The notes: generated from the letters alone by a model not told the origin. Shown: positions 35,913 through 56,601, numbered from the stretch's first letter. The stretch: DNA of 64,000 nucleotides from Chloroflexota bacterium (GCA_965220075.1 OZ244806.1:2519925-2583924), one strand, 5' to 3'. A program made the numbers and translations.

Positions 35913-35957
35913 CCCACACCCGGAATTGAACCGGGGACCTCGTTCTTACCAAGGACT
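35913..35957 (-). repeat. 45-nt direct repeat of the 3' half of tRNA-Thr(GGT), anticodon loop to acceptor end (putative attR of an integrated island)
   Basis: CCCACACCCGGAATTGAACCGGGGACCTCGTTCTTACCAAGGAC versus the genuine tRNA at 56526-56601 CCCACACCCGGAATTGAACCGGAGACCTCGTTCTTACCAAGAAC (about 43/45), in the same orientation. No 5' half is present, so this is not a functional tRNA. Confidence 0.7.
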
Positions 35958-35959
35958 TC

Positions 35960-36026
35960 GCTGCCAGCGCTGTGGCATGTACCAGGGGACCGCGAGCGAA
36001 ACGCAGCAAATTATGGTGTGGTGCGT
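35960..36026. repeat. 67-bp repeat R3 adjacent to the tRNA-half repeat; second copy at 53674-53741
   Basis: GCTGCCAGCGCTGTGGCATGTACCAGGGGACCGCGAGCGAAACGCAGCAAATTATGGTGTGGTGCGTT versus GCTCCCAGCGCTGTGGCATGTACCAGGAGACCCCGAGCGAAACGCATCAAATTATGGTGTGGTGCGTT (about 62/67). Contains the CAAAnnTATGGTGT motif that also occurs twice just 3' of the genuine tRNA-Thr. Confidence 0.7.
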
Positions 36027-36262
36027 TCCTACCCGGCTCGCCATGCCGGCCCGCCGTACAAACGAAAGATCCGCGCGCTCCCCGACCTGAACGTGAAAGA
36101 TCAAGATAGGGTAAGAAACGTCCCTGGACCAAAGCCGCGGCAGCGCTCCGCTGTCTCATACTCCTGGACATGCCCGGTGCGACTTCGCCGGGCGAAGGCC
36201 GTCATAAGAGGAGTGGAGCAGACCGTCCACCAAATCCTACCTCATGTTGGCTGGACGCGCTC

Positions 36263-37666
36263 TTACGTCCGAAGTTCCAACCGCGGCTGAAGCAGACGTT
36301 CGGGTACATCGTTCTCGCGCATGAACTCCACCAGAAGCCGATGTATCTCCCGTGCTTGGTCCAAGTGATTCTCGATCACATTGTCAAGTTGTTGGGGATC
36401 GGATGTCAGATTGTAGAGCTGAGACACTCCTGGGTCAGGGCTGTATAGCAGGCTCCAATGTCCCGCAGTGACGGTTGTCACCGGAGGGTCTTTGAGATCG
36501 CGGAGGAAGTTGTCTACTGATTGGACCGCGTCGCCCGGATTAGCGAATGGGATGCTGCTGACCACGTAGTCGCGTCCTGATCGTGTGGCGTCGCCCAGGG
36601 CAGGCGCCAGTGAGCGGCCCTGAACGAAGTCCGGGATGGCCACACCCAGCAGGTCGAGCACTGTAGGCATCACATCGATTGCGGAACTCAAGCCGCTGTG
36701 TACCCCGGGAGACACCCCAGGGGCACGGATCAGAAGCGGCAAATGAACCAACTCCTCGAAGAGCGGAGAGTAGCTCCACTGCGAACCCATTTCGTCATAT
36801 GGCCGGAGCGTTCCATCCGGGTACTTGTCTGAGCTCATCTTGCCGAAGAGGCCCCCATGCTCTCCGAAGTAGAAGCCGTGGTCTGAGGTGAAAATGACAG
36901 CCGTCTTGTCCGCAATCCCCATATTCTCTACAGACCTCAGAAGATGGCCCACCCAGGTGTCCACCATCGTGATCTCACCGCAGTAAGCGGCGTGCCCTTT
37001 ACGCATCTGCGCCTCTGTGTAGCCTGGCATATCATGCCAGTTGCCGTAGAGCGGGAGTACGAGCTCGCCATCGTACTCAGGCATGTAGATCTCTGTGTAG
37101 TATGATGGAGCATCCCAGGGCTCGTGGGGATCCCATGTATCCACATATAGAAAGAAATCCTCTTTGTAGTGGCGCTCCAGCCACTGCATGGCAGTCATAA
37201 ATGTCTTCGGCGCATTCCTGTCCGATTCATAGTGCCATCTATCCCTGATATCCAATGCCTCATTGTGATAGCCGGGCTCCGGGATCAACGACCATAGGGT
37301 GTCCTGTCCGGTGTTCATGAAGAATGTCTGGAAGCCTCGGTCGTAGTTCATTCCATCCCTGAGGTAGTATGGCGTGTCCACTGAAGCCGACGTGTGAAAG
37401 CCATGTTTGGCTAGTATCTCCGCAAGAGTGGTCACGCCCGCGGGAAGTGGCTCCCAACCCATGAAGGACATCGTCCATCGCCCTGTGTGATGGTCCGCCC
37501 GTGAGGGCATGGTCGGGAATCCGGCGGAGTAGTGAGCGTCGAACCTGACCGACGCGGCTGCCAACGCATCCAGGGAGGGTGTGCGTATGTAGGAATTACC
37601 ATATGCGCCAACGTGATCCTTGCGAAAGCTGTCGGAAACTATCCAAATGACATTCATACCAGTCAC
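36263..37666 (-). CDS. Sulfatase-like hydrolase/transferase of the alkaline-phosphatase superfamily (Thr at the formylglycine position)
   Basis: 467 aa. NVIWIVSDSFRKDHVGAYG and GFPTMPSRADHHTGR align to the sulfatase blocks IVADDLGYGDLGCYG and SPVCSPSRAALLTGR, but with T-M-P-S-R in place of C/S-x-P-x-R. C-terminal FTSDHGFYFGEHG metal-site block is present. No signal peptide or TM. Confidence 0.8.
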   Translation of the reverse strand: MTGMNVIWIVSDSFRKDHVGAYGNSYIRTPSLDALAAASVRFDAHYSAGFPTMPSRADHHTGRWTMSFMGWEPLPAGVTTLAEILAKHGFHTSASVDTPYYLRDGMNYDRGFQTFFMNTGQDTLWSLIPEPGYHNEALDIRDRWHYESDRNAPKTFMTAMQWLERHYKEDFFLYVDTWDPHEPWDAPSYYTEIYMPEYDGELVLPLYGNWHDMPGYTEAQMRKGHAAYCGEITMVDTWVGHLLRSVENMGIADKTAVIFTSDHGFYFGEHGGLFGKMSSDKYPDGTLRPYDEMGSQWSYSPLFEELVHLPLLIRAPGVSPGVHSGLSSAIDVMPTVLDLLGVAIPDFVQGRSLAPALGDATRSGRDYVVSSIPFANPGDAVQSVDNFLRDLKDPPVTTVTAGHWSLLYSPDPGVSQLYNLTSDPQQLDNVIENHLDQAREIHRLLVEFMRENDVPERLLQPRLELRT

Positions 37667-37674
37667 TTTCGTAG

Positions 37675-37980
37675 TTAGTTCGTTTCGGTAAGTGTATCAC
37701 CGAGCAGGCTACGGATTGACTTCCGCCAGGCGAAGGCCGTCATTGGGGGGATCGGACCGTCCACTACTTCGTCCTGTACGTTCCCCACTGTGACGGCTTC
37801 GCTACCGCCCATGCCCTGTGCCCAGTCGGAAAACGGCGAGAAGAGATTGTCGCTGAGTAGGAGGCCTTCGACTCGTGTCAGACGGGCAAGGTCGGGAGAC
37901 ATTTCCGGGTACCCCGACCAGCCGCCATCCAGGAAGACGACATCGTAGGGCTCGCGGAGCGTCGGCAGGACGTCGATCGC
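37675..37980 (-). pseudogene. Class I SAM-dependent O-methyltransferase (caffeoyl-CoA OMT family 3) C-terminal fragment
   Basis: AIDVLPTLREPYDVVFLDGGWSGYPE...VEGLLLSDNLFSPF matches the C-terminal half of family-3 OMTs (FDxxFIDADKxxY...GGLIxxDNVLW). An in-frame TAG sits at 37981-37983, and the N-terminal SAM-binding half is unreadable in any frame. Confidence 0.5.
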
Positions 37981-37982
37981 CT

Positions 37983-38030
37983 GGTGGGCCTAGTGAGACT
38001 GAATGGCGAACTTCCCGCTGGGAGATCCAG
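37983..38030. repeat. 46-bp repeat R4 (GGTGGGCCTAGTGAGACTGAATGGCGAACTTCCCGCTGGGAGATCC); second copy 40376-40425
   Basis: About 40/46 identity between the two copies, both inside the putative island and in the same orientation. Confidence 0.6.
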
Positions 38031-38166
38031 CTGCCAAAGGTCGGCTTGGTGGATGCCGAGGTGATGCGGGTGCCATTCGTCAACCCGACCAGGGAGCGTC
38101 CCCAGACAGAATTGTGAAGCCGCTCGACCTCTGGACGTCCACCACGCCGGGCGCCCCTACGCTAGG

Positions 38167-39717
38167 TTAACTGCCTTTGATGAAGTCGGCTGCACGTTCC
38201 GCCATGGCGATTACCGTTAGGTTGAGATTAGCCCGGACAGTATCAGGCATGATCGAGGCGTCGACGACGCGCAGTCCGTCGATGCCGTAGACCCTTCCGT
38301 ACTGGTCCACCACGGCCAACGGATCATTTGAAGGACCCATTTTGCAAGTGCTCGATACGTGGTGTGCGGTGATCACCGCCCGCTTCATCCAAGAATCCAG
38401 GGCATCATCGTCGGACAGGACGTCGTCCGGTGGTGCGAGCCGCTCCTCGACTATCTGATCGAAGGCCTCATGCTTAAACAGGTCGGCGCACACCCTGACA
38501 CATTCACGTAGCCGCGACCGATCGATGGGATCGTCCAGCAGGTTGAAGTCGAGATAGGGAGGTTGCCTGGGGTCGCCGGATTGGAGGCGCAGCTCGCCCC
38601 GGCTGAAGGCCAGGTACAGGCACAAACTTACGCCTATGCCTATCGGGTTCCTATGATCCAACCCCCTCATGGGCTTCGCCGCCGAATAGTTGCCCATGTA
38701 GATGACCAAATCGTTCTTGAAGGACGAACCCGAGGCCGTAAACCGCAGGGTGACGGTGCCAGTCGCGACCTGGTCGGTGTTTAGTGGGAACCCTTCACGC
38801 GTACGCCAGGCCATTGGCACATCCGGGTGATCGCGAAGATTGCGCCCGACACCAGGGAGATCCTGTACGACGGGTATGTCCAACTGCCGCAATTGGTCCC
38901 CAGGCCCAATACCCGACAGAGCCAGGATTTGCGGCGTACCTATGGCACCAGCACAGAGGATTATCTCCTCGCCATAGACGGAAAACTCCTCATGACCGCT
39001 GATGACCCGCAGTCCTACCGCTCGACGGCCTTCGAAGATGATCCCGACGACAAGGCAATGGGGTCTGATGGTCAAACCCCTTCGATCGCGCGCTGGGTCG
39101 AGGTAGCCCATTGCCGCACTCACACGCACGCGGCCGGTGACGTTGAAGGCAAGGGGCCCTACGCCCGTGGAGTCAAGTTGATTGTGGTCCGGACAATCGG
39201 GGAACCCGGCGTCTCGACATGCCCGGTAGAAGGCGCGTTGTTGGGGGCCCCATTCGTCGGGCTGATACCTGCGGCAGCTTATGGGGCCATCCGAACCGTG
39301 GAATTCATCTGCGAAATCCTGGTCCGCTTCCAACTTTCGCAGGTAGGGGAGTATCTTCTCGAACTGCCATTCGGAGTTCCCCCACTCCGCCCATCGGTCG
39401 AAGTCCTCCGGCATTCCACGAAGAAACTGAGCGTCGTTGATAGCGCTAGAGCCGCCCGTGACCTTTCCGCGAGGGACATCTATCCAAGCCTGGTCCGTGG
39501 CTCTGGCGCGAAAATTCCAAATGTGTCCGCTATCCCAGATTGCTTTCCCGGTCCCGTAGGCGTACTTCACCGAATCGGGCATCTGCTCCAACGCGGGATA
39601 GTCCCCTCCGGCCTCAAGAAGCAGCACCGACCGGTGACGGTCTTCCGATAGACGGGCCGCCAAGACCGAACCTGCCGATCCCGCTCCGACGACAATGTGG
39701 TCGTATTTCTTAGTCAT
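38167..39717 (-). CDS. GMC-family FAD oxidoreductase (choline dehydrogenase-like)
   Basis: From ATG 39717. YDHIVVGAGSAGSVLAARLSED...VLLLEAGG N-terminal FAD fold, GMC signature GGSSAINDAQF, and C-terminal HH active-site region (ITAHHVSSTCKMG). Confidence 0.9.
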   Translation of the reverse strand: MTKKYDHIVVGAGSAGSVLAARLSEDRHRSVLLLEAGGDYPALEQMPDSVKYAYGTGKAIWDSGHIWNFRARATDQAWIDVPRGKVTGGSSAINDAQFLRGMPEDFDRWAEWGNSEWQFEKILPYLRKLEADQDFADEFHGSDGPISCRRYQPDEWGPQQRAFYRACRDAGFPDCPDHNQLDSTGVGPLAFNVTGRVRVSAAMGYLDPARDRRGLTIRPHCLVVGIIFEGRRAVGLRVISGHEEFSVYGEEIILCAGAIGTPQILALSGIGPGDQLRQLDIPVVQDLPGVGRNLRDHPDVPMAWRTREGFPLNTDQVATGTVTLRFTASGSSFKNDLVIYMGNYSAAKPMRGLDHRNPIGIGVSLCLYLAFSRGELRLQSGDPRQPPYLDFNLLDDPIDRSRLRECVRVCADLFKHEAFDQIVEERLAPPDDVLSDDDALDSWMKRAVITAHHVSSTCKMGPSNDPLAVVDQYGRVYGIDGLRVVDASIMPDTVRANLNLTVIAMAERAADFIKGS

Positions 39718-40453
39718 GCTGCTTCGCTGTCGCGATAGAGCATCCCTAACGGTCGGGTGGTCCTCAATAGAGGCCAGTATCACAATAGCTCACAGGTCGC
39801 ATTGACTCAGGGTGTGTCTTCCTCATGAAGCTTGGCCCCGCTCTGCACCGCGAGCCCTGCGGTAGCCGTAGAGTACCCCGCTGGCGACGCAGGAGGCGTT
39901 TCGCTGAGTCCTCTCGCATGCCCAGCATGACTCCTCAGCGAATCCTATGACGGAGGGTGCACGCCCCCGACTCGTCGGGCGTTCCAGGTTCATTCAGCAC
40001 TAAGACGGGCTCTAGGACCGAGAGCACCAAGCCTGCGTGATAGAGAGGATGAGCACGCGCGAGCGCACGTTCCGACTGCACCGAGATACGGATCAGGAGA
40101 TACCGAAACATGCCGTTCACCACGGCTGCCGGCGGCAGTCACGACGTGATCGACCGAACGTGCAGTTGTGGAACGCTCTACCGTCCCGCTCCGACCAATT
40201 CCGCCTCGCGCCGCAGATCCAGGGTCGGAGCCCACTCGAATAGTCACGCGGTTGCGGCCGAGGCTTCCGGCTGCGTCCCTTAGGCGTAACCATCCCCCGG
40301 ACCATGAACTCCGCCCAAAGAGGCAGTGGCCGCGGCGGCCAAGGAGTTGTGAATGCGGAACGCATCGGCTGAAACATGGTGGGCCTAATGGGACTGAATT
40401 GCGAACTTTTCGCTGGGAGGTCCTCATATAGGAGTCGGTCAGACTATTTTGGC

Positions 40454-42190
40454 TTAGGGCGTGAGAACGTCCCCTGGAAGGTTCTCCCGGAGATTCCCCC
40501 ACCACCCGCGGTCCACTCCGTAATGCACCACGTATCCCCCGTCCTCATGCTCCCCGATGCGTCCGGCCACTTGGACCCCTCCGCCCACGGAAACCTGCTC
40601 GAAGACCTCCGCCGGTCCATGGACCCTCACCCACTGCACGTATTCCCCCCGGTCCACCTCCACCACCAGCTCGCCGACGTCGTGCGACACCACCTCTCCG
40701 GCAACGCTCACGCACGCATCCAGGAACGCGTCAAGCGCCACGCCCAGCAGCCCGGGTGGCGGGATTCCCGGAGAGTCCGCCGGACACGGGTCGACGGCCG
40801 GTGAAGCCAGGTTGATGCCGACCAGGACCGCCAAGACCAGCGCCCCTATCCCCAGCAGCCGGACCACCCACATGAAGCAACCACTCCACTCCCGTCCGCC
40901 CTTCGGCTCTTCTACCCAGCCCGGAGGCCGGTACTTCCGATAGTCCTGCGGCGAACTCGGGGGATCTGCCGCTGTTTCCCCTCGCGCCTCCGTCGCAGGC
41001 GTGACGCCCTCAGTTTGTGGTCTCTCATACGCCGTTCCGACACCGCCTTCGCTCTTCGCCGTTCCTTCAGCCTGCTCGGTGTTCCACAGCCCCAATTCGG
41101 TCTGTTCCGACTCTTTCAGCCAGGAAGCCGCGTCCGCCGCCTTATCAGACCGGCCGCTCAGGTACCACTCTACCGAGTGCATAAAGCCGTGATAGGCCGC
41201 GTCCAGGTCGGGACCCCGAAGGGAGGATGCCTGGCCGGAGCCGAACCACAGCGGAGCCGAGACCGAGACGTCCAGCCATGGCTGGGCCACATTCAGCCCT
41301 ACGGCATAGGCCAACATGGAATCGGGTTGGTCCCGGGGGGAAGGCGAGTCGGATCCGGCAAGGGACTTTTTCCAGCCAAGCCACTGACCTTTTTCGTGTG
41401 CACCCCTCTGCGTCGGCGGCACCATACCCGTCTGCACCGACGGCGCAAACAGCATGTACATGAAGCCTATGAACGCGCCGACCAGGGCGTTCGCCCACCA
41501 TTGGGACAGCCATAGAGCCAGCCAGAGCCCGCTGCCGACGCCCATAAGAGCCCCGGCCAACATTCCCCATTCGACTGCATCCCCGAGGTTTTCCCTCCTT
41601 ACACGCACCGGGTTGTCATCGAAAAGGCCCTGGTGTTGCAGGAACTCTCCCAACTTGTCGCCGATGGCATCCTCGTGCTTCTTCAACCGGTCATGCAGCG
41701 CCTCGACCGTTGTGGGGCCCGGCGGCAGGCTGTTGCAGATGAGCCGCTCCCAGTCATATACGACGGGACCCTTCTGAGACAGCCGGTATAGGAAGCCGGT
41801 TCCTGTTCTGACGCACTCCAACTGGAGCGTGCCGCGCTGGCACATCTCGATGACGGAGGCCAACAGCGTTTTGCTCAATATAAAATGGCCTTCCAGCGCC
41901 GATACCGCTGCCGCCGGCAGTGAACCGGACTGCGGGGTTGCCGGGTACGATGAGCGCCAATGCGCCTCGGTCCCCTGCGGGGGCCGGTACTTGGGCCACA
42001 GCCACAGCACAAGAAAGAGCAGCAGCCCGACGCCGACGCCTATTGTCCGGAAGCCCCAGGCCGTGAGCTGCGTCCAATCCATTTCCCGGTAATCGGGGAA
42101 GCCACTCTCGGCGATGGCCCCGCCAGGGTCCAGCGCGAACAACAGACCAATGACGACAAGGGCCGCCAGCGTTGCCAAGACACTATCCAT
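40454..42190 (-). CDS. hypothetical membrane protein (DUF2207-like topology: N-terminal TM, large soluble domain, C-terminal TM cluster)
   Basis: 578 aa. N-terminal helix ALVVIGLLFALD, central helices around residues 200-250, and a Pro/Gly-rich C-terminal region. Family assignment is tentative. Confidence 0.65.
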   Translation of the reverse strand: MDSVLATLAALVVIGLLFALDPGGAIAESGFPDYREMDWTQLTAWGFRTIGVGVGLLLFLVLWLWPKYRPPQGTEAHWRSSYPATPQSGSLPAAAVSALEGHFILSKTLLASVIEMCQRGTLQLECVRTGTGFLYRLSQKGPVVYDWERLICNSLPPGPTTVEALHDRLKKHEDAIGDKLGEFLQHQGLFDDNPVRVRRENLGDAVEWGMLAGALMGVGSGLWLALWLSQWWANALVGAFIGFMYMLFAPSVQTGMVPPTQRGAHEKGQWLGWKKSLAGSDSPSPRDQPDSMLAYAVGLNVAQPWLDVSVSAPLWFGSGQASSLRGPDLDAAYHGFMHSVEWYLSGRSDKAADAASWLKESEQTELGLWNTEQAEGTAKSEGGVGTAYERPQTEGVTPATEARGETAADPPSSPQDYRKYRPPGWVEEPKGGREWSGCFMWVVRLLGIGALVLAVLVGINLASPAVDPCPADSPGIPPPGLLGVALDAFLDACVSVAGEVVSHDVGELVVEVDRGEYVQWVRVHGPAEVFEQVSVGGGVQVAGRIGEHEDGGYVVHYGVDRGWWGNLRENLPGDVLTP

Positions 42191-42538
42191 AGGTCCCCTT
42201 CCTTCCCACCTCTCGCAGGTCTCCTTGCGCCACGCCCGGCTTGCACCACCTGCGCTCGACAGTGCAGGGAATCTCGCTTCTCTACGCAGCCAACTAGAAC
42301 CCTGCCGCTGTCTCCAACAGTACTGTCGCCAGAAGTCTCTCTAGGGAAAGAGCAAGATCGCCATGCTTGACTGAACCGCAGCACGAAGGATCTCGATTAC
42401 GTCTAGTTTGGCGGCAGGCACCTCCGATAGGCCTACGGCGACCTCGGCAGAACTGCCGTAGGCTCACGTCGCGCCTCCGTCTTGGAGGTGGTCGTTCGAT
42501 GAGAGGGAGACACGGTCCGCAGGTAACGATGCTGGCGT

Positions 42539-42585
42539 TGGTGGGCCGGGTGCGACTCGAACCCACGACCTTCGGACAGAGAGTC
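42539..42585 (-). other. tRNA 3'-end-like fragment (T-arm GTGGG-TTCGAGT-CGCAC, acceptor CCGGCCC, ACCA) without a matching 5' half
   Basis: Reverse complement GGTCGTGGGTTCGAGTCGCACCCGGCCCACCA. No complementary GGGCCGG acceptor strand lies within 120 nt. It sits at the truncation point of the GH116 fragment. Possibly an old att remnant of a different tRNA. Confidence 0.35.
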
Positions 42586-42608
42586 CAGCCTGACGAGGGT
42601 TCGCCAGC

Positions 42609-47201: not shown

Positions 47202-47260
47202 TGGCAGGGGCGGGCGCTGTGCCGTTGGGATTCACCCTCACCCCAACCCTCTCCCATCAA

Positions 47261-49387: not shown

Positions 49388-50134
49388 CTAAGGAGCCAGT
49401 TCTTCGAGTCTAATCCATGCACCCGGATAGCGACCCCTTAGCTCATAGAACATTTCTACGGTCCCATTGAAGAGACCTTCTTCAAGTTTGTGGTAAGCAA
49501 GCCAATTGTTTTCGTCATGAAGGTCGAATTCACCATATATCTTTTCCAAAGGCCGAAGCTGAAACAGCTCGTGCGTGAGGAACTTATTTCTGTATGTAAC
49601 AAATATCGACTCGAAATTGGTGGCCCCGAGCGACGTGTCCAATATCTCGTCAATTGGTTTGATGAGGCTCGACAGACCATGCTTCGCAAGGATTGGCCGC
49701 ACGTTAACATCTGATGGATACTTAGTGGAAGCGACAAAATAGTTGAAGCATATAGATCTCAATGCGTTCAGATAGAAGGATTGCTCTGGGCTGGCGTTTC
49801 CATTTGATTCAGTTGCGATCAATAGACCGGTATATCCATGTACAAAGCCAAACATGGAATGAAGCATAATCCCAAGTTCCACTCTGTCATTCTCTGACAT
49901 ATCGGAGGGCAGAAACTGCCGGCTCCATCGAGCGTCCAAGTTAAACCATTGATGATCTGGTATTGGCTCAGGAGGCCCGACGGTAAGGTCTTCATTGATC
50001 TCTGCTAGCAATCCGGACTTGCACTTGAGACATTTGTATACAAGGCTTAAACCAAATCGGCCGCGGCTCTCAAAGCTACAATCGGTATCGTTTATACGAC
50101 CAACATTGTCGCACTTTTTGCAAGTGATATTCAT
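49388..50134 (-). CDS. hypothetical protein with N-terminal CxxC...CxxC zinc-ribbon, AT-rich (about 42% GC; foreign)
   Basis: About 248 aa from ATG 50134. MNITCKKCDNVGR...YKCLKCKSG zinc ribbon followed by an uncharacterised domain. The upstream in-frame extension in the track runs into GC-rich REP hairpins and is rejected. Confidence 0.6.
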   Translation of the reverse strand: MNITCKKCDNVGRINDTDCSFESRGRFGLSLVYKCLKCKSGLLAEINEDLTVGPPEPIPDHQWFNLDARWSRQFLPSDMSENDRVELGIMLHSMFGFVHGYTGLLIATESNGNASPEQSFYLNALRSICFNYFVASTKYPSDVNVRPILAKHGLSSLIKPIDEILDTSLGATNFESIFVTYRNKFLTHELFQLRPLEKIYGEFDLHDENNWLAYHKLEEGLFNGTVEMFYELRGRYPGAWIRLEELAP

Positions 50135-50246
50135 CGCCAATCTTGAGGATCCATGTCCTTCCTCTGCCAAGCACAGATTACCCTCCCTTTGAGATTGTAA
50201 GGGAGTGCACATTCGCCAGTCACGTTGTTCACCATTCAGGTGCGTG

Positions 50247-50275
50247 GCCGGTGGCCCAGGCTGCGTGCAGCCTGG
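50247..50275. repeat. REP-type hairpin GGCCCAGGCTGC-GTG-CAGCCTGGG; sister hairpin CCCACGCTGC-GTG-CAGCGTGGGCCACCG at 50411-50440
   Basis: Two near-identical 10-bp-stem hairpins 165 bp apart, related to the hairpin at 29975-30000 and sharing the GGTGGCCC/GGGCCACC flanks of the REP family. Confidence 0.6.
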
Positions 50276-50548
50276 GAAGAACAGTGTGGCTCCTTCGCTC
50301 GATACCGGCATGGACAGTCCCGATCCTACTCAGGGAGGACTGGTTCAACGCTTGGGTTGTCGGGTAGCCCGGTCGCGGCGACAGCCCCGCCTCACAGTCC
50401 CTGTCTTGAGGGAATCCCACGCTGCGTGCAGCGTGGGCCACCGAGCCATACACTGCACGAGTGCCTAATACTGTTAGGAATGCTCTGAAAAAGCCCGGTG
50501 GTTGCGGCAGGGCCTATGCTCACGAGCGACGGATAGCCGCTGAGGGCC

Positions 50549-50887
50549 ATGATGCCGCCGCAACGCTCATTTGCCGACGTGGAGTATGACGGACAGCCGC
50601 GCCAGACGCGGCGGGAGCGCTTTCTGCAGCGCATGGACGCGCTGATGCCGTGGGCGCGGCTCGAAGCGCGCATCCGGCCGGTCTACCCCACCGGCGAGCG
50701 CGGGTGGCTCCCCTACCCGCTGGCCCTGCTGCTGCGGCTTCACGGCGTGCAGGTGTTCTACAACCTCAGCGACCCGGCGATGGAAGACGCGCTCTATGAC
50801 AGCGCGGCGGTGCAGCGGTTCGTGGAGCTGACCGCGCGGGGGCCGCGGCCCGATGAGACGACGAGGCGCCGGTGTTCGGCGGGCTGA
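50549..50887 (+). pseudogene. IS5-family transposase N-terminal (DUF772) fragment
   Basis: SFADVEYDGQPRQTRRERFLQRMDALMPWARLEARIRPVYP...GWLPYPLALLLRLHGVQVFYNLSDPAMEDALYD matches the IS5 transposase N-terminal domain. No DDE domain follows. Confidence 0.6.
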
Positions 50888-51100
50888 GCGGCGACCGGCT
50901 CGCGCGGAGAATCAAGGCGGTGGCCCAGGCCGCCGGCCTGGGCGCGCACTTCAGCGGGCATAGCGGGCGCGTCGGCATGGCGCGCCGCATGGTGTCGCGG
51001 GGAGCGCCGCTCCCCGTGGTCGTGCGCCAGGGCCGATGGCAGCCTGCCACGGGCGCGGCGATGGTTCAGCGCTACACGCGCGCCAGGCTTCTCCCGCAGG
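50872..51100 (+). pseudogene. Tyrosine recombinase (phage integrase) C-terminal catalytic fragment
   Basis: HFSGHSGRVGMARRMVSRGAPLPVVVRQGRWQPATGAAMVQRYTRA carries the HxxR...Y catalytic-tail signature of tyrosine integrases. The N-terminal two-thirds are missing. Confidence 0.55.
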
Positions 51101-51148
51101 GCGCTGGAGCGCGTCCTCGTCTCGAACGGGGTTGCCTACCGGCACGTC

Positions 51149-51364
51149 GTGGAGTTGGGCAACGCGAGCCGGCATGACCCGGAGGACGCGCCGCTGAGGC
51201 TCGTCGACGAGCCGCGCGGCCTGTCGATCCTCCAGGCCGAGTTCGCGACCGGCCGCGTGGTGGCGATCATGTGCGCGTGCAGGGCCGGGGCGTCCTGCCA
51301 CCGCTCCCATATTTCGGCGCAGATGGTGTCACGGCTGACGGACCTGCAGGTGCTTCACCTCTAG
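51149..51364 (+). pseudogene. DUF488-family protein C-terminal fragment
   Basis: VVAIMCACRAGASCHRSHISAQMVSRL resembles the conserved C-x-E...CHR motif of DUF488. Too short to be intact. Confidence 0.4.
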
Positions 51365-51929
51365 GCCCCACCATTGCGGCCACGGGCTCCGTCCTGCCGC
51401 ACCACGGGCTTTTCGGCCCCCCCCGCCCCACCAAATTTCCCCAAACGTCGTCGAACCGGCCCTCTCACGCGCGTCTTTCGCGGCCTCAGCGCGGGAGCGA
51501 GCTGTGGGTCTTGGTGACGACCGCGAAGGGCCGCGGCGCCGGCGGGGCGGCGCGGGGAACGCGCGGCGCACCTGCTCGTCGAAGGCCGCCCAGGCGCGGG
51601 AGCCGGCACGCCACGCAGCGCTCGACGTCCTGGGCGGCTGGGGGAAGGCGCTCGCCGCACGTGGCGCACGCCCGCGGACAGCGCCGGCAAAAGCGGTGCG
51701 GCAGTCGCAGCACGCGCCCGCAGATCTCACAGGCCATTCGCATACGAGATTCTGCCGCGCCGCTCGGGCCGGCACGTCCCCAGATTCGCAGCCTGCGCGC
51801 ACTTCGCCGCCGAATGCGTCAATGAAACGATTTGTCGCCCAACCGCGGCGCTCGCGTGAAAAACCCTACCGTTGGCGCCTGCAGGGTGTGCATTAGAATG
51901 CCCGATAGGCGTGGCGCACTAGTGGGCAC

Positions 51930-52340
51930 ATGCAACGGTCAACGATTCGACGCGTCGGACGACTGCTGGTTCTTCCGCTCTGGCTCCCGTTGGCGATTCT
52001 GGTGGTCACAGCCATCCGCTTCGCCACCCTGTCGCCGGTTGAGGAAGCGAGTGGCATGCCGAACGCGGCCGCGATGATTGCGCTTATGGTCCTCTTTGCC
52101 TGGATCGCCGCGATCCCGCTGACCCTGGCGGTGGCCTTTCTGCATCGGCGCATCCGCGTGGTGGCCTACGTGTGCGGTGCCGTGCTGGTGCCGCTGACGG
52201 TCTACGGCGCAGTGATTGGCGGGCTGTTCGGACCGGTGGGCGTCGTGCTCTACCCGCTCGTCCTCTCGCTCCCGGCCTGGACCGCTCTGGGCATCACGAC
52301 CTTCATTCAGCGCAACCGCCTCCGACATGCGCCTGGCTGA
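51930..52340 (+). CDS. hypothetical small membrane protein (4 predicted TM helices)
   Basis: 136 aa, strongly hydrophobic with regularly spaced helices. Plausible real CDS within the otherwise fragmentary region. Confidence 0.5.
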   Translation: MQRSTIRRVGRLLVLPLWLPLAILVVTAIRFATLSPVEEASGMPNAAAMIALMVLFAWIAAIPLTLAVAFLHRRIRVVAYVCGAVLVPLTVYGAVIGGLFGPVGVVLYPLVLSLPAWTALGITTFIQRNRLRHAPG

Positions 52341-52385
52341 GAGCGCCTAGCTGCCCTAGCCGGAGACGTGTGAGCTGCGGCTGAC

Positions 52386-52680
52386 CGATGCTTGCGCCGC
52401 ATCCCGCCGCAGCGTCTCCACCTCGCCGGCCTCCAGCTCCCTCGCTGCCCCGGCCGCCAAGTCGCCCAGCGTCACGGGCCGAGGCGCACGCGCCGCAAGT
52501 GCGTGACCCGCATTCCCACGGCCTCGAACATTCGCCGCACCTGCCGCTTGCGGCCCTCGGTGAGCACCAACTGCCAGTCGTTGTTCCCGCGCCGGTCGCC
52601 GGTCGCCGATATCGATGCCGTCGGTGAGCCGTCGGACCAGATCACCCTAGAGGTGGCCTGGTTTATGACCGATCACTTGG
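52386..52680 (-). pseudogene. RsuA/RluB-type pseudouridine synthase C-terminal fragment with in-frame stop
   Basis: Minus-strand translation LVLTEGRKRQVRRMFEAVGMRVTHLRRVRLGPVTLGDLAAGAARELEAGEV matches the EGRNRQVRRMFEAxG...LxRVRxG C-terminus. It is preceded by a TAG within the conserved LDxDTEGL region, and no N-terminal domain is present. Confidence 0.5.
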
Positions 52681-53234
52681 TCTAGATCGAGAGCGATCGC
52701 AACATACAGGAGTTTGAGTTTGGCAACAGAGCGGCGAGAGTCGTGATTTCATAGCTGAAACAGAGGTAAATCACCCCCCTACAGGACGTGAACAGTGAAC
52801 ACTTTTTGAAAGGCCGCAGTCCGGTCTGAAAGGCTGAAACGCGGTGGATGGTGGGGGCCACGACAAGGCGGAAAAGCGGCGGGTGGGTTGGAAAACAGGG
52901 CGCAGAAGGTGATGGATGTGCCGGTGCATGACGTGGCGGTTTTGTGGCTGTCAGAGGCATCTCCGGCCCTCTGAAGGGCATTGACGCACTGCTCGTCGAG
53001 GTCGTGGGGTGGTGACACGTCAGCACGTGACTGTGCCTGGGGATCGGTCGCTCAGGGTCTCGAAGCCGGGCTCCCAGGGCCTCCAGCCCGGCGACGGCGG
53101 CTTTCAGCCTGTCTGCCAGTTCCCTCGTCCTCCCGCACGCGGCCCGCTCCTTCCGACACGCCTCCTCCAGCTCCTCGTATGCGTCCCTGCCGGCGGCTGC
53201 GGCGTCCCTGGCCTCGTCCCGTTCCCGCTCCCGC

Positions 53235-53360
53235 TTCTAAGTATTCCTGACGAATATCCCTCACCAACTCGGGATGGGTGAGCATCGGACCGCCCGACCA
53301 CGTGGAGGGGCTTGCCAGCCCACGCCTCTCGAACTCCGAGCCCATACCCCCGTCCATCAA
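53235..53360 (-). pseudogene. Homocysteine S-methyltransferase/MetH Hcy-binding domain N-terminal fragment (about 42 aa)
   Basis: MMDGGMGSEFERRGLASPSTWSGGPMLTHPELVRDIRQEYLEAGA matches the ILDGGMGTELERRG...WSA..L..PExVxxIHxxYxxAGAD N-terminus. The downstream sequence is low-complexity. Confidence 0.35.
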
Positions 53361-53673
53361 GATCGTCTCCCCCGCTGCTGGGAGTCTGTCCGAGAAACAA
53401 TGTTCTAAACCATATGCGTCATTAGTGGAGTGTAAAGATGCTAATTACTCCACGACAAAGTCCAGATTGCTATAAGCAGGTTATTGCGTGGCGTTTTTCG
53501 TCTCCAGGAACGAATCCTCGGACAGGCTCCTAGCAGGTTTGAACAAGTTTCCTTTTGCTCCCACGTCCATACAGGTGCAGTTCCCTCAAGGCTGCCGACA
53601 TCGCATCTTCTCCCAACAGCTCCCACAGACTAAACAGGAAGTGCTCGCCCAAACTATAGTTACCAACTATTTT

Positions 53674-53741
53674 GCTCCCAGCGCTGTGGCATGTACCAGG
53701 AGACCCCGAGCGAAACGCATCAAATTATGGTGTGGTGCGTT
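53674..53741. repeat. Second copy of 67-bp repeat R3 (see 35960-36026)
   Basis: About 62/67 identity to copy 1, in the same orientation. Not accompanied by a tRNA-half. Confidence 0.7.
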
Positions 53742-54033
53742 TTCCTGGGCCTCGACTTCGAGCGTCATCCGCGCCAGGATTGCGCCATGCTCACTGGCAT
53801 GCGAGCTCTCTCGATTCCCGCGGATCGTCTTGTGATTGCCGCCGAAGTGCGGAACCCAGAGGCCGCCCCCATAGCACTCGCCGAAGCGTGTTCGCCGTCT
53901 TAGTTCCGGAACAATCGGCTTCGGAAGTCACGCGCGATTTCGTCAGTTCCGGCAACAGCCAGGATTCACTCAATCCTGGCATGTCCTCTTCGTTCCGCGA
54001 GTTGCCGCCATTGCCGCTGCGGCTTCCGAACTA

Positions 54034-54804
54034 CTAACAGCCGAAGCCCAGGGTGAAGATGCAGAGCATGCCCTCTATGAACTTGTCGATGTTGCCCAAG
54101 GCGTTCAAGCCAAGTTCGGCCAGGGTCAACAGCGCTTCGGCTGTGATCGCCCCGGCCTCGAGCAGCTTGAGCAGGTCAGCGTTGCCGGATCGCTGGGCGA
54201 GCTCCGCGATCCCGGGGCCGTTGGGATCGGCGCCGGCGTCCAGCAGCAGCTGTACGACCGCGATGTCGCCGCGATCGACGGCTAGGGCCAGGACCGATAG
54301 GCCTTCCTCCGCCAGGGTGTTGGGATCGGCGCCGGCGTCCAGCAGCATTTTCAGAATCTCGGCTTCGCCCTCTATCACGGCCCAGACCACGACCGCGAGG
54401 CCGGCTCCGTCCTTGGCATTAGGGTCAGCGCCGGCGTCCAGCAGCATTTTCAGAATCTCGGCTTCGCCACCGCGGACAGCCAAGGACGCAACAGGGTCGC
54501 CGTCCGACGTGAGGGCGTCGGGATTGGCGCCGGCATCCAAGAGCAGTGGCACGATTTCCGAGTCGCCAAGCTCAACGGCGACCGGCAAGGCCGAACGGCC
54601 GTCTTCGTCCCGGTATTTGGGGTCGGCGCCGGCCCAGATCGCGAGCTCGACAAGCGTCGTCCGGCGTTCGGAAACGTGGTCCAGCAGCAGCGCATCGTCG
54701 CTGAGGATCAGCCGTGCCAGGAAAAACAGAAGCACGGGCCCAGCGAGCACGAGAGCCACGGCGGCGTAGAGGACGAACCGAAGTCGGGCTGTCACGGAGT
54801 CCAT
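54034..54804 (-). CDS. Ankyrin-repeat protein with N-terminal transmembrane anchor
   Basis: 256 aa. N-terminal TM helix LYAAVALVLAGPVLLFFLARLIL, then about 6 ankyrin repeats (LLDAGADPN... repeated; GDPV/GLAVVVWAV...). Confidence 0.85.
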   Translation of the reverse strand: MDSVTARLRFVLYAAVALVLAGPVLLFFLARLILSDDALLLDHVSERRTTLVELAIWAGADPKYRDEDGRSALPVAVELGDSEIVPLLLDAGANPDALTSDGDPVASLAVRGGEAEILKMLLDAGADPNAKDGAGLAVVVWAVIEGEAEILKMLLDAGADPNTLAEEGLSVLALAVDRGDIAVVQLLLDAGADPNGPGIAELAQRSGNADLLKLLEAGAITAEALLTLAELGLNALGNIDKFIEGMLCIFTLGFGC

Positions 54805-55105
54805 CTCGCCAATGTGCGCTGGCCGAGGCTGGCAGGATTTCGGAGCCGTACCGGACGGTGCGCCCTCAGTCTCTGGGACGGTGACCCAAGGGTTGAACTG
54901 ACGCGGGACGAATCCGTTTCAATGGGCGGATCTGGAACGCCGTTCCCGGTCATCGCGTCTGCGATCTCGATCGATTTAGGTAGTGGGTGAGATGGTCCCG
55001 CCTCGACAGAGGCACGCCCCCCGTTCAGAAGCAATCGGCGACACCCTCACGTTGGCCCGGTTTCCGTCCGGGCCAACGTGGGGGTTGGAATGCCGTCGTC
55101 GTGCG

Positions 55106-56170
55106 CTAAGTCACATCGTCGAACGCCCAGGCGAACACCCCACGCACGTCCTCGCGGTGATCGCCGCGGCAGCCGGCCTCCGCCTGATCGCCGAAGACTG
55201 CCTGATAGATGCCGACGTTGTTGTCGTTACCGAGGTGGTTCTCCACGATGTCGTTGAGGTCGACGCAGGTCGTGGGCCAGCCCAGGACCGGCCCCGCGGC
55301 CAGCGCCTCGCGGATAATCCGTACGATTTCCGAACCTTCCCCCTCCCAGAACAAGGCATAGCCCAGAGGAAGCCGGCCGCCAGAGTTGTTGAGGGTCACA
55401 TCGACCCCGGCGTCGACGAGGATGCGCACGATTTCCGTGTGGCCTCGAAAGATGGCTTCGAACAAGAGCGGATCGCCGTTGCTTTCCTTGGCGTTCACGT
55501 CCGCCCCGGCGTCCACCAGGATCCGCACGACGTTCGTGTGGCCTCGCCAGATCGCGGAATGAATCACTGGGTCGCCATCGGCGTCCCTGGCGTCCACGTT
55601 GGCGCCGGCGTCAATCAGGATCTGCACGACATCCGCGTGGTCCCGCCAGATCGCCGAATGAATCACCGGGTCGCCGTCGGAGTCCGTGGCGTTCACATTG
55701 GCGCCGGCTCCTGCCAGGATCCGCACGATCTCGACGTGGTTGCGCCAGACCGCCTCGCGAATGAGGGGATCGTTGTCCGAGGTCCGCACATTGGCGTTCA
55801 GACCGCCGGCCACAAGGGTGCGCACCTGCTCGGTCTGGCCCCGCCAGACGGCTGAGTAAAGGGCGTCATCCACCAGCGGCAGGGACGGCGCTGCGACAGC
55901 GGGTGGGGGAGCGGGTGGCGCGAGATCGAACGCCCAGGCAAACACCCCGCGCACGTCCTCGCGGTGGTCGACCTGGCAGCCGGCCTCGGCCTGGTCGCCA
56001 AAAACCCGCTGGTAGATGCCCACGTTGTTCTCCCGGCCCAGGTGCTGTTCCACGACGTCGTTTAGGTCGACACAGGTGGTGGGCCACTGGGCGAACACCG
56101 GTGTCGCGAGCGCCGCAGCAGCGGCCACCGCAACCACCACCGCAATGAGAGTCGGTCGTACCCGTGTCAT
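55106..56170 (-). CDS. Secreted ankyrin-repeat protein with duplicated Cys-containing N- and C-terminal domains
   Basis: From ATG 56170. Signal peptide MTRVRPTLIAVVVAVAAAAALATPVFA. The roughly 55-aa module WPTTCVDLNDVVEQHLGRENNVGIYQRVFGDQAEAGCQVDHREDVRGVFAWAFD is repeated almost verbatim at the C-terminus, flanking about 5 ankyrin repeats (ILAGAGANVNATDSDGDPVIHSAIWRDH...). Confidence 0.85.
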   Translation of the reverse strand: MTRVRPTLIAVVVAVAAAAALATPVFAQWPTTCVDLNDVVEQHLGRENNVGIYQRVFGDQAEAGCQVDHREDVRGVFAWAFDLAPPAPPPAVAAPSLPLVDDALYSAVWRGQTEQVRTLVAGGLNANVRTSDNDPLIREAVWRNHVEIVRILAGAGANVNATDSDGDPVIHSAIWRDHADVVQILIDAGANVDARDADGDPVIHSAIWRGHTNVVRILVDAGADVNAKESNGDPLLFEAIFRGHTEIVRILVDAGVDVTLNNSGGRLPLGYALFWEGEGSEIVRIIREALAAGPVLGWPTTCVDLNDIVENHLGNDNNVGIYQAVFGDQAEAGCRGDHREDVRGVFAWAFDDVT

Positions 56171-56525
56171 AGGCCATTTTCCCTTGTACTCGAACTGTCC
56201 GAAGTCTCTGGCTGATCGGCCTACCCTGTCAATGAGTGCATGGCAATCGCAGTCTGCCCACAGCTCGATACCCGTGTAGCCCGCCATCAGCCGGCAACGC
56301 CGCCTGCCTATTGAGCAAGTTGGTCAGCGGGAAGCGGCCGGCAGTTGCCCGGGCACGGTGCCGGCCCCGGCGTCGAGGCGATCACGACAAGGTGGGGGGC
56401 TTGGACTCCGCGGCCGGCGCCAACCACGAACCAAGGCAAAAGTATGGTGTCTTGAAGAACTGTGGCAGGGCGCGTCTGGCAACATCCAAACAACTATGGT
56501 GTCTTCCAAACCTGTAAACCCGCGT

Positions 56526-56601
56526 TGGAGCCCACACCCGGAATTGAACCGGAGACCTCGTTCTTACCAAGAACGCGCTCTACCGACTGAGCTATGTGGG
56601 C
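56526..56601 (-). tRNA. tRNA-Thr (anticodon GGT), CCA encoded
   Basis: The reverse complement folds canonically: acceptor GCCCACA/TGTGGGC, D-arm GCTC-AGTCGGTA-GAGC, anticodon stem CGTTC/GAACG with loop TTGGTAA, T-arm TCCGG-TTCAATT-CCGGG, CCA. Two CAAAnnTATGGTGTCTT motifs lie within 85 nt of its 3' end. Confidence 0.9.

Follow-up and report, generated by a model that had tools for sequence, protein, structure and literature searches.

To what kind of event, or series of events, does the variable region downstream of a tRNA-Thr(GGT) gene in an uncultured soil Chloroflexota bacterium owe its structure? We analysed a 64,000-nucleotide (nt) stretch of DNA from this organism (GCA_965220075.1, OZ244806.1:2519925-2583924; hereafter the window), in which a first-pass annotation had proposed a single 20.7-kb island. 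We found at least two att-bounded modules together with an 11-kb segment that is absent from a 98.5–98.8%-identical contig. The region is probably (at roughly 85%, judged from sequence) a composite island formed by repeated site-specific integration at the anticodon-loop site of the tRNA gene, in which two integrase-less att-flanked modules, E2 (53660-56525) and E1 (35957-42590), are stacked and a third segment, E3 (42591-53659), lies between them. The repeats, the arm architecture, the differences in modules among relatives, the polymorphism of E3 and the lack of integrase in the modules were observed directly. The tRNA gene and the candidate att sequences are as follows.

56526-56601, minus strand: intact tRNA-Thr(GGT), integration target regenerated at attL (ARAGORN; Rfam tRNA, 66.3 bits)
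56440-56525, minus strand: arm Y (P′ arm of attL), directly 3′ of the tRNA (motif scans)
53660-53741, minus strand: distal end of E2, comprising the core heptamer TTACCAA (53660-53666) and arm X′ (P arm)
35957-36027, minus strand: arm X of E1, with CTGTGGCA at 35970 and TATGGTGTGG at 36012
35909-35956, minus strand: last displaced tRNA-Thr(GGT) 3′ fragment (positions 28-75), attR core of the array (blastn, repeat finder)
35824-35908, minus strand: degenerate arm-Y-like sequence outside the last tRNA fragment (alignment by eye; motif table)
35498-35823, minus strand: 3′-end remnant of a GFO_IDH_MocA oxidoreductase gene abutting the array (window 34260-35823 is homologous to L085, which has the complete gene ahead of the aminotransferase gene)

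The intact tRNA is 100% identical to that of a more distant relative, L204. Its positions 28-75 align in the same orientation to window positions 35956 to 35909 with 45/48 identities (E 1.4e-14, sensitive blastn); megablast gave 43/45 over 35909-35953, and a repeat finder returned a 70-nt match (35887-35956 versus 56505-56574, 83%) that reaches approximately 22 nt beyond the tRNA 3′ end. The match is peculiar to the GGT isoacceptor, and the adjacent tRNA-Thr(TGT), only 64% identical to tRNA-Thr(GGT), does not share it. Thus far the first-pass annotation was borne out, both in the displaced 3′-half copy (35909-35956) and in its reading as the attL/attR mark left when a tyrosine integrase inserts DNA at a tRNA gene, as the intervening region is accessory and differs among relatives, which carry parts of it with tRNA-half repeats. 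The anticodon-loop heptamer, TTACCAA on the plus strand, occurs three times in the window, only at the att cores (35946, 53660 and 56564). Homology starts at loop position 32 in most copies of arm X and at position 28 in the terminal copy of the window, and the identity block extends through the tRNA 3′ end and a trailer of approximately 25–35 nt, which fits the known crossover sublocation in the anticodon loop. An intact tDNA and a cognate fragment in the same orientation therefore lie on one replicon, as Islander expects.

The arms carry repeated short motifs. Arm Y contains TATGGTGT at 56443 and 56495 and CTGTGGCA at 56460. The 64-kb window has four copies of the 8-mer TATGGTGT (0.4 expected), all on one strand and in three arms only, a count attained in 0 of 100 shuffles, and the three occurrences of CTGTGGCA fall exclusively in the arms that bear TATGGTGT. 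An internal junction of the related locus L082 repeats the arm Y motif offsets of -84, -67 and -32 from the tRNA 3′ end, the -84/-67 or -84 motifs also occur at the intact tRNAs of L082 and L083, and the arm X offsets are the same across unrelated cargo in relatives. The degenerate sequence at 35824-35908 has TATGGAGT at offset -84, plus CTGTTGCA, which suggests that the array may once have extended further. From these elements we infer an attP of approximately 240 nt that would consist of arm X (with, counted from the loop, CTGTGGCA at +24, GAGCGAAACGC at +48 and TATGGTGTGG at +66), the heptamer TTGGTAA of the loop, a copied tRNA 3′ half and its ~25–35-nt trailer, and arm Y (TATGGTGT at -32 and -84 and CTGTGGCA at -67 from the tRNA 3′ end). 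Such a site would be used by a heterobivalent tyrosine integrase with the TATGGTGT and CTGTGGCA repeats as putative arm sites, the exact crossover presumably lying in or beside the loop. Conservation of the motifs could simply reflect descent of all arms from one ancestor, but their repetition inside a single attP argues for putative binding sites. Recombination in or next to the loop would regenerate the tRNA from the element's own copy, and each integration would push the previous tRNA 3′ half and all earlier insertions further downstream. The attP-like junction matched none of 50,697 phage records and nothing in pattern scans of IMG/VR, and a pattern search of JGI/ENA metagenome contigs gave just one further site, so that the family is not demonstrably widespread.

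The two modules carry the following genes.

55106-56287, minus strand: ankyrin-repeat protein, 393 aa, E2 cargo (Pfam Ank_2, 1e-33)
54034-54804, minus strand: ankyrin-repeat protein, 256 aa, E2 cargo (Pfam Ank, 8e-23)
42539-42590, minus strand: 3′ part (positions 29-76) of a tRNA-Glu(CTC)-like gene borne by E1 (blastn; junction sequences)
35957-42538, minus strand: body of E1 (Pfam, motif, GC, comparison with L082 and L083)
40454-42190, minus strand: DUF2207-like membrane protein, E1 (Pfam DUF2207_C)
39990-40505, minus strand: 171-aa ORF, E1
38167-39783, minus strand: GMC oxidoreductase, E1 (Pfam)
36263-37666, minus strand: Thr-variant sulfatase-family enzyme, E1 (Pfam; T-x-P-x-R motif)

E2 (2.9 kb) adjoins the tRNA, has the two ankyrin genes as its cargo and keeps both att sites, arm Y and arm X′; the segment 53660-53741 is 90% identical to 35946-36027. 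The 393-aa ankyrin gene is kept in L081, L082, L200 and L084. E1 has a GC content of ~60.6% (over 35957-42590) versus 65% for the window, and it has arm X as one att site and, as the other, arm Y′, which L081 and L082 show. The arm sequences are the same in both modules. The tRNA-Glu gene is intact in L081, L082 and L083, was called as tRNA-Glu(CTC) in L081 and L082 by ARAGORN, and is cut in the window at the left edge of E3. Most genes that had been listed for the interval were recovered by Pfam (sulfatase, GMC oxidoreductase, DUF2207_C, GH116 stub, DUF1697, two GHL10 genes, DUF772/IS5, a weak Phage_integrase fragment and two ankyrin proteins), and the sulfatase has a T-x-P-x-R motif; the zinc-ribbon ORF given as 42% GC measured 47.7%. 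Three features had been overlooked: the third att-like site (53660-53741), the tRNA-Glu 3′ fragment (42539-42590) and an intact integrase just outside the interval.

Related loci, each of whose arrays is visible over only ~10 kb, share this architecture and vary in module content. In L081 (98.5–98.8% identical to the window) and L082, the tRNA-Thr is followed by arm Y, two ankyrin genes and arm X′, then by a tRNA half (98–100% identical), arm Y′, tRNA-Glu, DUF2207 (plus GMC), sulfatase and arm X, and finally by a second tRNA half and the aminotransferase gene; this layout holds a complete attP-like internal junction, of which the tRNA half and arm Y′ beside the distal end of E2 are replaced by E3 in the window. 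L083 has the same att architecture with other cargo, namely an E1-like module beside the tRNA and then a peptidase S9 module, and L084 has ankyrin and two-component-system modules. L204 has the identical tRNA-Thr(GGT) after AhpC, and within 9.4 kb neither tRNA halves nor arm X occur; its distal synteny has not been kept, and the tRNA is neighboured by IS elements. Among the related loci compared, we saw no clean empty site with both flanks conserved, and no excised circle or attB junction was observed. E1 of the window is 97% identical to that of L082, where the flanks are 89% (aminotransferase) and 80% (AhpC) identical, and 92% identical to that of L083, where the flanks are 85% and 70.5% identical. 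This excess could come from homologous recombination between lineages rather than re-integration; in L083, however, unlike the window, the E1-like module occupies the tRNA-proximal place, and this different array position favours independent integration. The earlier description of an old, immobilised island was only half right: because E1 is ~97% identical between species with flanks of 80–89% and sits elsewhere in a second genome's array, this is a dynamic locus and not simply an old one, and E3 is polymorphic within the species.

E3 is a patchwork that can be divided as follows.

42591-53659, no strand assigned: E3, 11 kb, standing in for ~540 nt of the E2/E1 junction
42591-42859: unmatched
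42860-50475: chromosomal-type cluster with a GH116 N-terminal stub, a 190-aa ORF, DUF1697, two GHL10 genes and a 307-aa low-GC ORF (Pfam)
50475-50864: IS5 fragment (Pfam DUF772/IS5)
50865-53659: gene-fragment debris
50872-51100, plus strand: C-terminal remnant (~70 aa) of a Cre-like tyrosine recombinase with GHSGRVG and RY motifs, truncated by the IS5 fragment

The GH116 stub, DUF1697, the GHL10 pair and the low-GC ORF are not the classical cargo of an island: this ~7.6-kb part is colinear at ~92% with an ordinary chromosomal cluster of L198 and L199, in which GH116 is full length (852 aa) and no tRNA-Thr array lies nearby. E3 is missing from L081, L082 and L083 and present in the window and in L200, an independent 2.7-Mb assembly (21x coverage) whose sequence follows window 46712-57964 colinearly at 97.8%. 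One sample gave both L200, with E3, and L081, without it. The structure of L081 and L082 is not derivable from an E3-bearing ancestor by simple deletion, because both hold an intact tRNA-Glu and a complete junction. In the lineage of this strain, E3 would have later taken the place of the E2/E1 junction, at the cost of a tRNA-Thr half, arm Y′, ~440 nt and a 5′ stretch of the tRNA-Glu in E1, and it appears to be made up of a piece of a normal chromosomal glycosidase cluster and of IS5, recombinase and other gene fragments. Our preferred scenario, possible rather than probable, has E3 begin as a third element that entered the tRNA-Glu gene of E1, with a later deletion or aberrant recombination event whose end lay at the TTGGTAA core. 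An assembly chimera is extremely unlikely: the source is probably a metagenome-derived genome and the left junction (42590) was seen in this window only, but the right junction, at the distal end of E2, is identical in L200.

Neither the window nor ~90 kb of related loci yielded a cognate integrase, and no relative of the att family that bears an integrase came to light. The remnant at 50872-51100, which had been put forward as the cognate enzyme, scored 24.3 bits against Pfam Phage_integrase (2.9e-5), under the 27.1-bit cutoff, and 5e-4 against a PHROG integrase; in the PDB its recombinase matches were to Cre only (E ~2e-3), and two ankyrin chains outscored Cre but without a significant aligned stretch. 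Lying 2.5 kb from the nearest att core, it is confined to E3 and missing from genomes with the same att-bounded modules. Weak, Cre-like and found in E3 alone, it is at best a candidate for the cognate enzyme. It shows no similarity to the intact integrase at 57980-59155, which is specific to this strain and absent in L200, L201 and L083. Searches of the E1 and E2 ORFs (Pfam, PADLOC, PHROGs) gave no integrase, phage or transfer genes, only sulfatase, GMC, DUF2207 and ankyrins. Both modules retain their two att sites and lack integration and transfer genes, as CIMEs do. Because they encode no integrase, E1 and E2 would be CIME-like units, mobile only if an integrase reached them in trans or from a neighbouring element. 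As for other classes, no integrase is fixed at the locus and the junctions are tRNA halves with arms, not the attC sites of integrons; PHROGs gave only integrase matches and ankyrin-repeat families of unknown function, not the content of a prophage or phage satellite. The wider surroundings (20-64 kb) are generally variable, with an IS481 insertion, a Gabija block and the strain-specific integrase region.

Three other histories have to be weighed against stepwise integration. That one ~20.7-kb island arrived in a single integration, its own integrase decaying to 50872-51100 to leave it old and immobile, would account for an interval bracketed by the intact tRNA and the terminal fragment, for the weak integrase fragment inside it and for the many pseudogene fragments at 50.5-53.6 kb. 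We consider it very improbable: there is an internal att site at 53660, L081 and L082 have complete attP-like junctions, the 11 kb with the integrase fragment is missing from the 98.5–98.8%-identical contig that retains both att-bounded modules, relatives have half of the interval as a chromosomal cluster, and the fragment itself is Cre-like and far from any att core; L081, L082 and L083 already contradict it. Origin of the tRNA-half copies and arms by local duplication or homologous recombination, with no mobile element, draws on the variability of the 20-64 kb surroundings, but the copies start precisely at the anticodon stem-loop, end at the tRNA 3′ end plus trailer, share one orientation, separate unrelated cargo and bear structured arms with internally repeated motifs. 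This geometry is as predicted for site-specific integration (PMC4383910) and unexpected from random duplication, which leaves such an origin a negligible likelihood.

A platform resembling an integron and served in trans, its modules integrase-less by design and reshuffled at tRNA-Thr(GGT) by an integrase elsewhere or a helper element, deserves more weight, although we judge it unlikely. Five genomes show four module types (the ankyrin pair, E1 variants, peptidase S9 and the two-component system), none with an integrase or remnant and all with both arms at fixed motif spacing; the modules are small (2.8–7.6 kb) with simple cargo, and E1 shifts its array position between genomes while being more conserved than its flanks. 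However, no candidate integrase is linked to the locus (the sole nearby intact one, 57980-59155, is strain-specific), integrase-bearing members may lie outside the ~10 kb visible per array or in strains beyond the sample, elements are documented to decay to CIMEs (PMC5704250), and the metagenome search added a single site. Similarly doubtful is the more specific proposal that small modules that never encoded an integrase, each with a full attP (arm X, tRNA-Thr half, arm Y), are reshuffled by an integrase encoded elsewhere; if true, this gene-capture platform would be the functional counterpart of an integron, with a tRNA gene and a heterobivalent tyrosine integrase as its basis.

Stepwise integration, the preferred reading, makes the island ordinary in kind and unusually readable in structure. 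It is well established that tRNA islands can have attP sites centred on the anticodon, displaced 3′ fragments and a tandem arrangement (PMC4383910). As in Islander class A islands (Hudson, Lau & Williams 2015, PMC4383910; Williams 2002 cited therein), an intact tRNA is regenerated by the element, the far end is recognizable by a displaced 3′ fragment in the same orientation, identity spans the tRNA from its anticodon stem-loop to its 3′ end, and several fragments mark tandem arrays; unlike Islander, which requires an integrase gene per island, no module here has one, and 35.9-56.6 kb contains no integrase apart from the ~70-aa Cre-like remnant in the secondary insertion. The Prochlorococcus tycheposons (Hackl et al., bioRxiv 10.1101/2020.12.28.424599) likewise are cargo elements at tRNA genes whose neighbours are split only by partial tRNA copies, with newer arrivals displacing older ones deeper into the island and fragmented integrases and extra partial tRNAs as remnants. 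What defines a tycheposon is a tyrosine recombinase and a replication module of its own; here the genes next to the tRNA code for ankyrin proteins, neither a recombinase nor a replication gene accompanies them, and the sequences are unrelated. Att-flanked units that lack an integrase and stand in tandem arrays are called CIMEs (PMC5704250), and the Chloroflexi have examples at ssrA (PMC3146451). Like those of the Streptococcus ICESt1/ICESt3 family, which grow by accretion (PMC5704250), E1 and E2 keep attL and attR, lack integration and transfer genes and stand in tandem at the 3′ end of the target gene; unlike them, they have no functional ICE/IME partner in the array and belong to Chloroflexota, not Firmicutes, and they may or may not have arisen by decay. 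The Dehalococcoides ssrA islands (McMurdie et al. 2011, PMC3146451) are from the same phylum and are also tandem islands downstream of a small-RNA gene, split by direct repeats of its 3′ end, with conserved sequence around the repeats and a tRNA-like gene embedded in the islands; fifteen of them, without an integration module, have been proposed to be cis-mobilizable. Those islands use a tmRNA target (T-loop region), a 20-bp repeat and the serine recombinase DsiB, in contrast to the tRNA-Thr anticodon-loop target, the 45–70-nt repeat and the arm architecture typical of tyrosine integrases described here. The array is a further example of an established type of tRNA island, in uncultured soil Chloroflexota.

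The window holds four tRNA genes by ARAGORN, in agreement with Rfam, including tRNA-Thr(GGT) at 56526-56601 on the minus strand. The first-pass annotation had reported a displaced 3' half of this gene, and a sensitive blastn search against the window bore it out: tRNA positions 28-75 recur in the same orientation from 35956 to 35909 (45/48 identity, E = 1.4e-14). Megablast gave 43/45 over 35909-35953, and a repeat finder returned a 70-nt match, D11, that ends ~22 nt beyond the tRNA 3' end. Because the neighbouring tRNA-Thr(TGT) at 57831-57906 is just 64% identical to the GGT gene, the copy at 35909-35956 is isoacceptor-specific. The tRNA-half repeat first read from the sequence is therefore genuine, with a match far stronger than chance would give. 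The minus strand holds a second tRNA-like fragment, at 42539-42590, and the 82 nt on the inward side of the left fragment (35946-36027) are repeated at 53660-53741 with 90% identity. Both 82-nt copies begin with TTACCAA, the reverse complement of the anticodon loop TTGGTAA, which occurs three times in 64 kb: in these two copies and in the tRNA itself.

Contigs of relatives were taken from a graded series of homologues of the flanking class-V aminotransferase (34328-35551); for AhpC, on the tRNA side, the protein matches listed were at most 61% identical, came from many phyla and were of no use for synteny. Two relatives, L081 (aminotransferase protein 99%, DNA 98.5-98.8% identical) and L082 (90% protein), have just 10-12 kb from AhpC/tRNA-Thr(GGT) to the aminotransferase. 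In both, the tRNA is followed by arm Y, two ankyrin genes, arm X' and a tRNA-Thr 3' half (98-100% identical), and then by arm Y', ~440 nt, an intact tRNA-Glu(CTC)-like gene, DUF2207, a GMC oxidoreductase (L081 only), a sulfatase, arm X, another tRNA-Thr 3' half and the aminotransferase; arm X is the sequence on the inward side of the left fragment and arm Y the one 3' of the tRNA, with X' and Y' their copies at the internal junction. L083 (85%) shows the same architecture with other cargo, an E1-like module (PhyH, without DUF2207) beside the tRNA and then a peptidase-S9 module, and L084 (82%) carries an ankyrin module and a module with a two-component system. These layouts, together with the internal att structure, indicate that the window holds a tandem array. 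At tRNA-Thr(GGT) lies a composite island array, formed by accretion, with the following parts:

35957-42590: E1, a module with a sulfatase, a GMC oxidoreductase, a 171-aa ORF, DUF2207, the 3' part of the tRNA-Glu-like gene, and arm X
42591-53659: E3, an 11-kb block between E2 and E1, not in L081, L082 or L083
53660-56525: E2, a module in which arm Y and arm X' enclose two ankyrin genes

The interpretation as an integrated island at tRNA-Thr(GGT) is thereby partly supported; in place of the single ~20.7-kb island proposed by the first-pass annotation, the relatives show a tandem array, here of two integrase-less modules plus E3. The gene list proposed for the region was largely right by Pfam, except that the low-GC ORF has 47.7% GC, not 42%. 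In a more distant relative, L204 (AhpC 71% identical), AhpC is accompanied by a tRNA-Thr(GGT) that is 100% identical, and neither tRNA halves nor arm X occur within 9.4 kb. An unoccupied site would fit this picture, though IS elements and the loss of distal synteny blur the comparison. Relative to the L082 lineage, AhpC/BCP (56693-57157) is 74% identical in amino acids and 80% in nucleotides, and the aminotransferase flank 90% and 89%, so the two flanks of the array, the AhpC side being far more diverged, may differ in history.

Four copies of the 8-mer TATGGTGT are present in the window, each on the plus strand, against 0.4 expected, and none of 100 shuffles reached four:

36012, plus: TATGGTGT in one 82-nt copy
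53726, plus: TATGGTGT in the other 82-nt copy
56443 and 56495, plus: TATGGTGT just 3' of the intact tRNA

CTGTGGCA occurs three times in the window, in the same three places (both 82-nt copies and 3' of the tRNA). The internal junction of L082 reads, in order, TATGGTGTGG, CTGTGGCA, TATGGTGTGG, a 23-nt spacer, the tRNA 3' half ending in TTACCAA, CTGTGGCA, GAGCGAAACGC and TATGGTGTGG, and is, judged by this motif order, a complete attP-like site. Across unrelated modules the motifs keep constant offsets, of +24, +48 and +66 from the loop in arm X and of -84, -67 and -32 from the tRNA 3' end in arm Y. Outside the last fragment lies a degenerate arm Y with TATGGAGT at offset -84, and CTGTTGCA, next to what remains of a GFO_IDH_MocA gene, found whole in the related locus L085; the array was probably once longer and cut back by deletion. 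The arm Y plus tRNA-end pattern had 0 matches in IMG/VR and metagenome contigs, a looser arm X pattern matched 112 metagenome stretches with a real site beside a tRNA half in one (L161), and the attP-like junction returned nothing relevant from phage and plasmid collections. Arm X is not a structured RNA by Rfam, whose matches are the four tRNAs alone. A 4-bp inverted repeat (ATAG/CTAT) around the 53660 core and the likeness of 53614-53659 to a tRNA half were considered and set aside as too weak to carry weight.

No integrase, transfer or phage genes were found in E1 or E2. The sulfatase of E1 has T-M-P-S-R where a C/S-x-P-x-R motif is expected. E1 of the window is 97% identical to that of L082, with flanks at 89% (aminotransferase side) and 80% (AhpC side), and 92% identical to that of L083, with flanks at 85% and 70.5%; in the window, L081 and L082 it lies distally, and in L083 it is the module next to the tRNA. 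This identity above that of the flanks and the changed position in the array point to movement after the lineages diverged, and offer evidence, from sequence comparison, of a recent transfer of one module or more between species. The tRNA-Glu(CTC)-like gene of E1 (L081 2311-2386; L082 4152-4227; its 3' part in the window) is still called by ARAGORN; read from the junction sequence, it has two acceptor-stem mismatches and a T at position 37, and it may be a hybrid left by an earlier integration. Between arm Y' and this gene (~3712-4150), L082 has a putative frameshifted remnant, from translation, of an OmpR-type winged-helix (Trans_reg_C-like) response-regulator C-terminus. Beside arm X, at window position 36066/36067, L081 and L082 hold 630-710 nt more, including a leucine-rich-repeat-like pseudogene fragment, which was either lost from the window or never there.

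E3 stands in place of ~540 nt of the E2/E1 junction, comprising tRNA-Glu positions 1-28, the ~440 nt, arm Y' and the tRNA-Thr half, and cannot be ancestral because other genomes have an intact tRNA-Glu and the complete junction. L200, a 2.7-Mb contig covered 21x, carries E3 too; this contig and the 4x contig L081 derive from one sample, ERZ25067264, in which the genome with E3 is ctg836550 and the contig lacking it ctg763945. Window 46712-57964 and L200 are colinear at 97.8%, and their right junctions are identical. Its presence in L200 and absence from L081 make E3 polymorphic within the species. The right edge separates the loop heptamer precisely from the 3' strand of the anticodon stem, an exactness that integrase action at the TTGGTAA core could account for. 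The left edge splits the tRNA-Glu-like gene between positions 28 and 29, which would fit an element integrated earlier into the E1-borne tRNA-Glu.

The first GHL10 protein of E3 has homologues at 94-95% identity with source names Chloroflexi/Chloroflexota, in ordinary chromosomal contexts in L198 and L199. Gene order there is full-length GH116 (852 aa), a 190-aa ORF (L198 only), DUF1697, GHL10 and GHL10; L199 has DUF2330 and an IS5 copy at the point of the 190-aa ORF, and a homologue of the low-GC ORF closes the cluster in L198. No tRNA-Thr array was found at these GH116/GHL10 clusters. Window 42860-50475 is colinear with the L198 cluster, at ~92% from GH116 to GHL10 and at ~76%, patchily, over the low-GC ORF; the stretch at 43.7-44.6 kb is missing in L199. 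Truncation of GH116 by the tRNA-Glu junction was ruled out, as homology to full-length GH116 stops at 42860, leaving 270 nt unmatched. The rest of E3 holds a putative DUF488-like stretch, unassigned ORFs, an N-terminal fragment of a homocysteine S-methyltransferase, and two further remnants:

50475-50864: IS5 fragment
50872-51100: recombinase C-terminal remnant

E3 is a strain-specific patchwork, partly of chromosomal origin. Two repeats link it to DNA outside the array. An 85-nt repeat (80% identical) lies at 33095-33179, outside the island, and at 47297-47380, between the GHL10 genes, and also in L081 and L200. A perfect 30-nt inverted match joins 29969-29998, left of an IS481 element, to 50248-50277, just before the IS5 fragment; since IS5 copies in L198 and L199 are bordered by related sequence, the match may represent an end or a target associated with IS5.

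The fragment at 50872-51100 had been taken for the integrase of the island, a role that is not supported: it is confined to E3, the nearest core lies 2.5 kb away, and it shows no relation to the intact integrase outside the array. It scored 24.3 bits against Pfam Phage_integrase, under the 27.1-bit cutoff, and matched a PHROG integrase family at 5e-4; among solved structures its recombinase matches were to Cre only, weakly (E about 2e-3), with two ankyrin chains outscoring Cre without a significant aligned stretch. The other recombinase is intact:

57980-59155, minus: integrase with Phage_int_SAM_3 and Phage_integrase, just 5' of tRNA-Thr(TGT), its end 74 nt away

No TATGGTGT arms lie near this gene, and it was rejected as the fixed partner of the array. 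L200 departs from the window at 57964, with PhyH and type I restriction-modification genes instead of the integrase, and in L201 (the L082 contig) and L083 unrelated genes lie upstream of AhpC; missing from all three, the integrase is not a constant partner of the array. Neither recombinase sequence had tblastn matches in any fetched locus, and no further integrase, and no cognate one, was found in the window or those loci. A reading we regard as unlikely is that the modules lack integrases by design and depend on one supplied in trans, much as integron cassettes would, with the tRNA as their platform.

Variable DNA also seems to lie on both sides of the array. Given the divergence of L200 at 57964, the part of window 57965-64000 that starts with the integrase, takes in an IS5-like transposase (60582-61595) and reaches tRNA-Ala(CGC) at 63784-63858 appears strain-specific. 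It is probably another island, for which no att repeat could be identified. A tandem TGCGCAAGT(TT)TGCGCAAGT at the 57964/57965 boundary, beside the integrase, is not enriched in the window. On the other side, L083 and L084 have homologues of window 15.4-20.1 kb just 1-9 kb from the aminotransferase, so ~14 kb of left flank (20000-34000) also seems to be variable DNA. It carries flotillin/NfeD, a 2-hydroxyacid dehydrogenase, an RHH protein, PhyH and

25487-27163, minus: GajB of a Gabija pair (PADLOC, 6e-52)
27147-28880, minus: GajA of the same pair (PADLOC, 2e-30)
30291-31530: IS481-family insertion sequence, transposase 30320-31453, 39-nt inverted repeats

Pfam detects a UvrD helicase alone in the Gabija pair, whose block (25487-28880) has 58% GC against 65% for the window. 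The IS481-family insertion is precisely missing from the 98.5%-identical contig L081.

What had been described as a degraded island thus becomes a resolved history of two stacked integrase-less modules at one tRNA plus E3, an 11-kb rearrangement polymorphic among co-occurring strains of one soil sample. The locus yields a defined attP architecture of ~240 nt with candidate arm sites, and the TATGGTGTGG and CTGTGGCA arms flanking the tRNA-Thr half are concrete queries for the missing integrase. It also carries a warning for island predictors: if the span from the tRNA to the farthest fragment is taken as one island, a native glycosidase cluster would be labelled, wrongly, as cargo gained by horizontal transfer, and a stray recombinase fragment would pass for the island's integrase.

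In islands at tRNAs with an anticodon-centred attP, the regenerated tRNA and the displaced fragment mark the ends, and several fragments mark tandem arrays (PMC4383910). The geometry of this locus matches that Islander class, which, however, requires an integrase in each island, and here the modules have none; nor does the locus qualify as an integron or a prophage. Tandem islands in Chloroflexota have so far been described at ssrA, in Dehalococcoides, where they are separated by repeats of the ssrA 3' end, use a serine recombinase and in 15 cases have no integration module (PMC3146451); the present locus adds a tRNA-based example of the tyrosine-integrase type. In Prochlorococcus tycheposons newcomers at tRNAs push older elements inward (bioRxiv 10.1101/2020.12.28.424599), the same pattern as here, although the locus is not itself a tycheposon. 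CIMEs are integrase-less units that keep both att sites and stand in tandem, explained by decay followed by accretion (PMC5704250), and their structural features are those of this locus.
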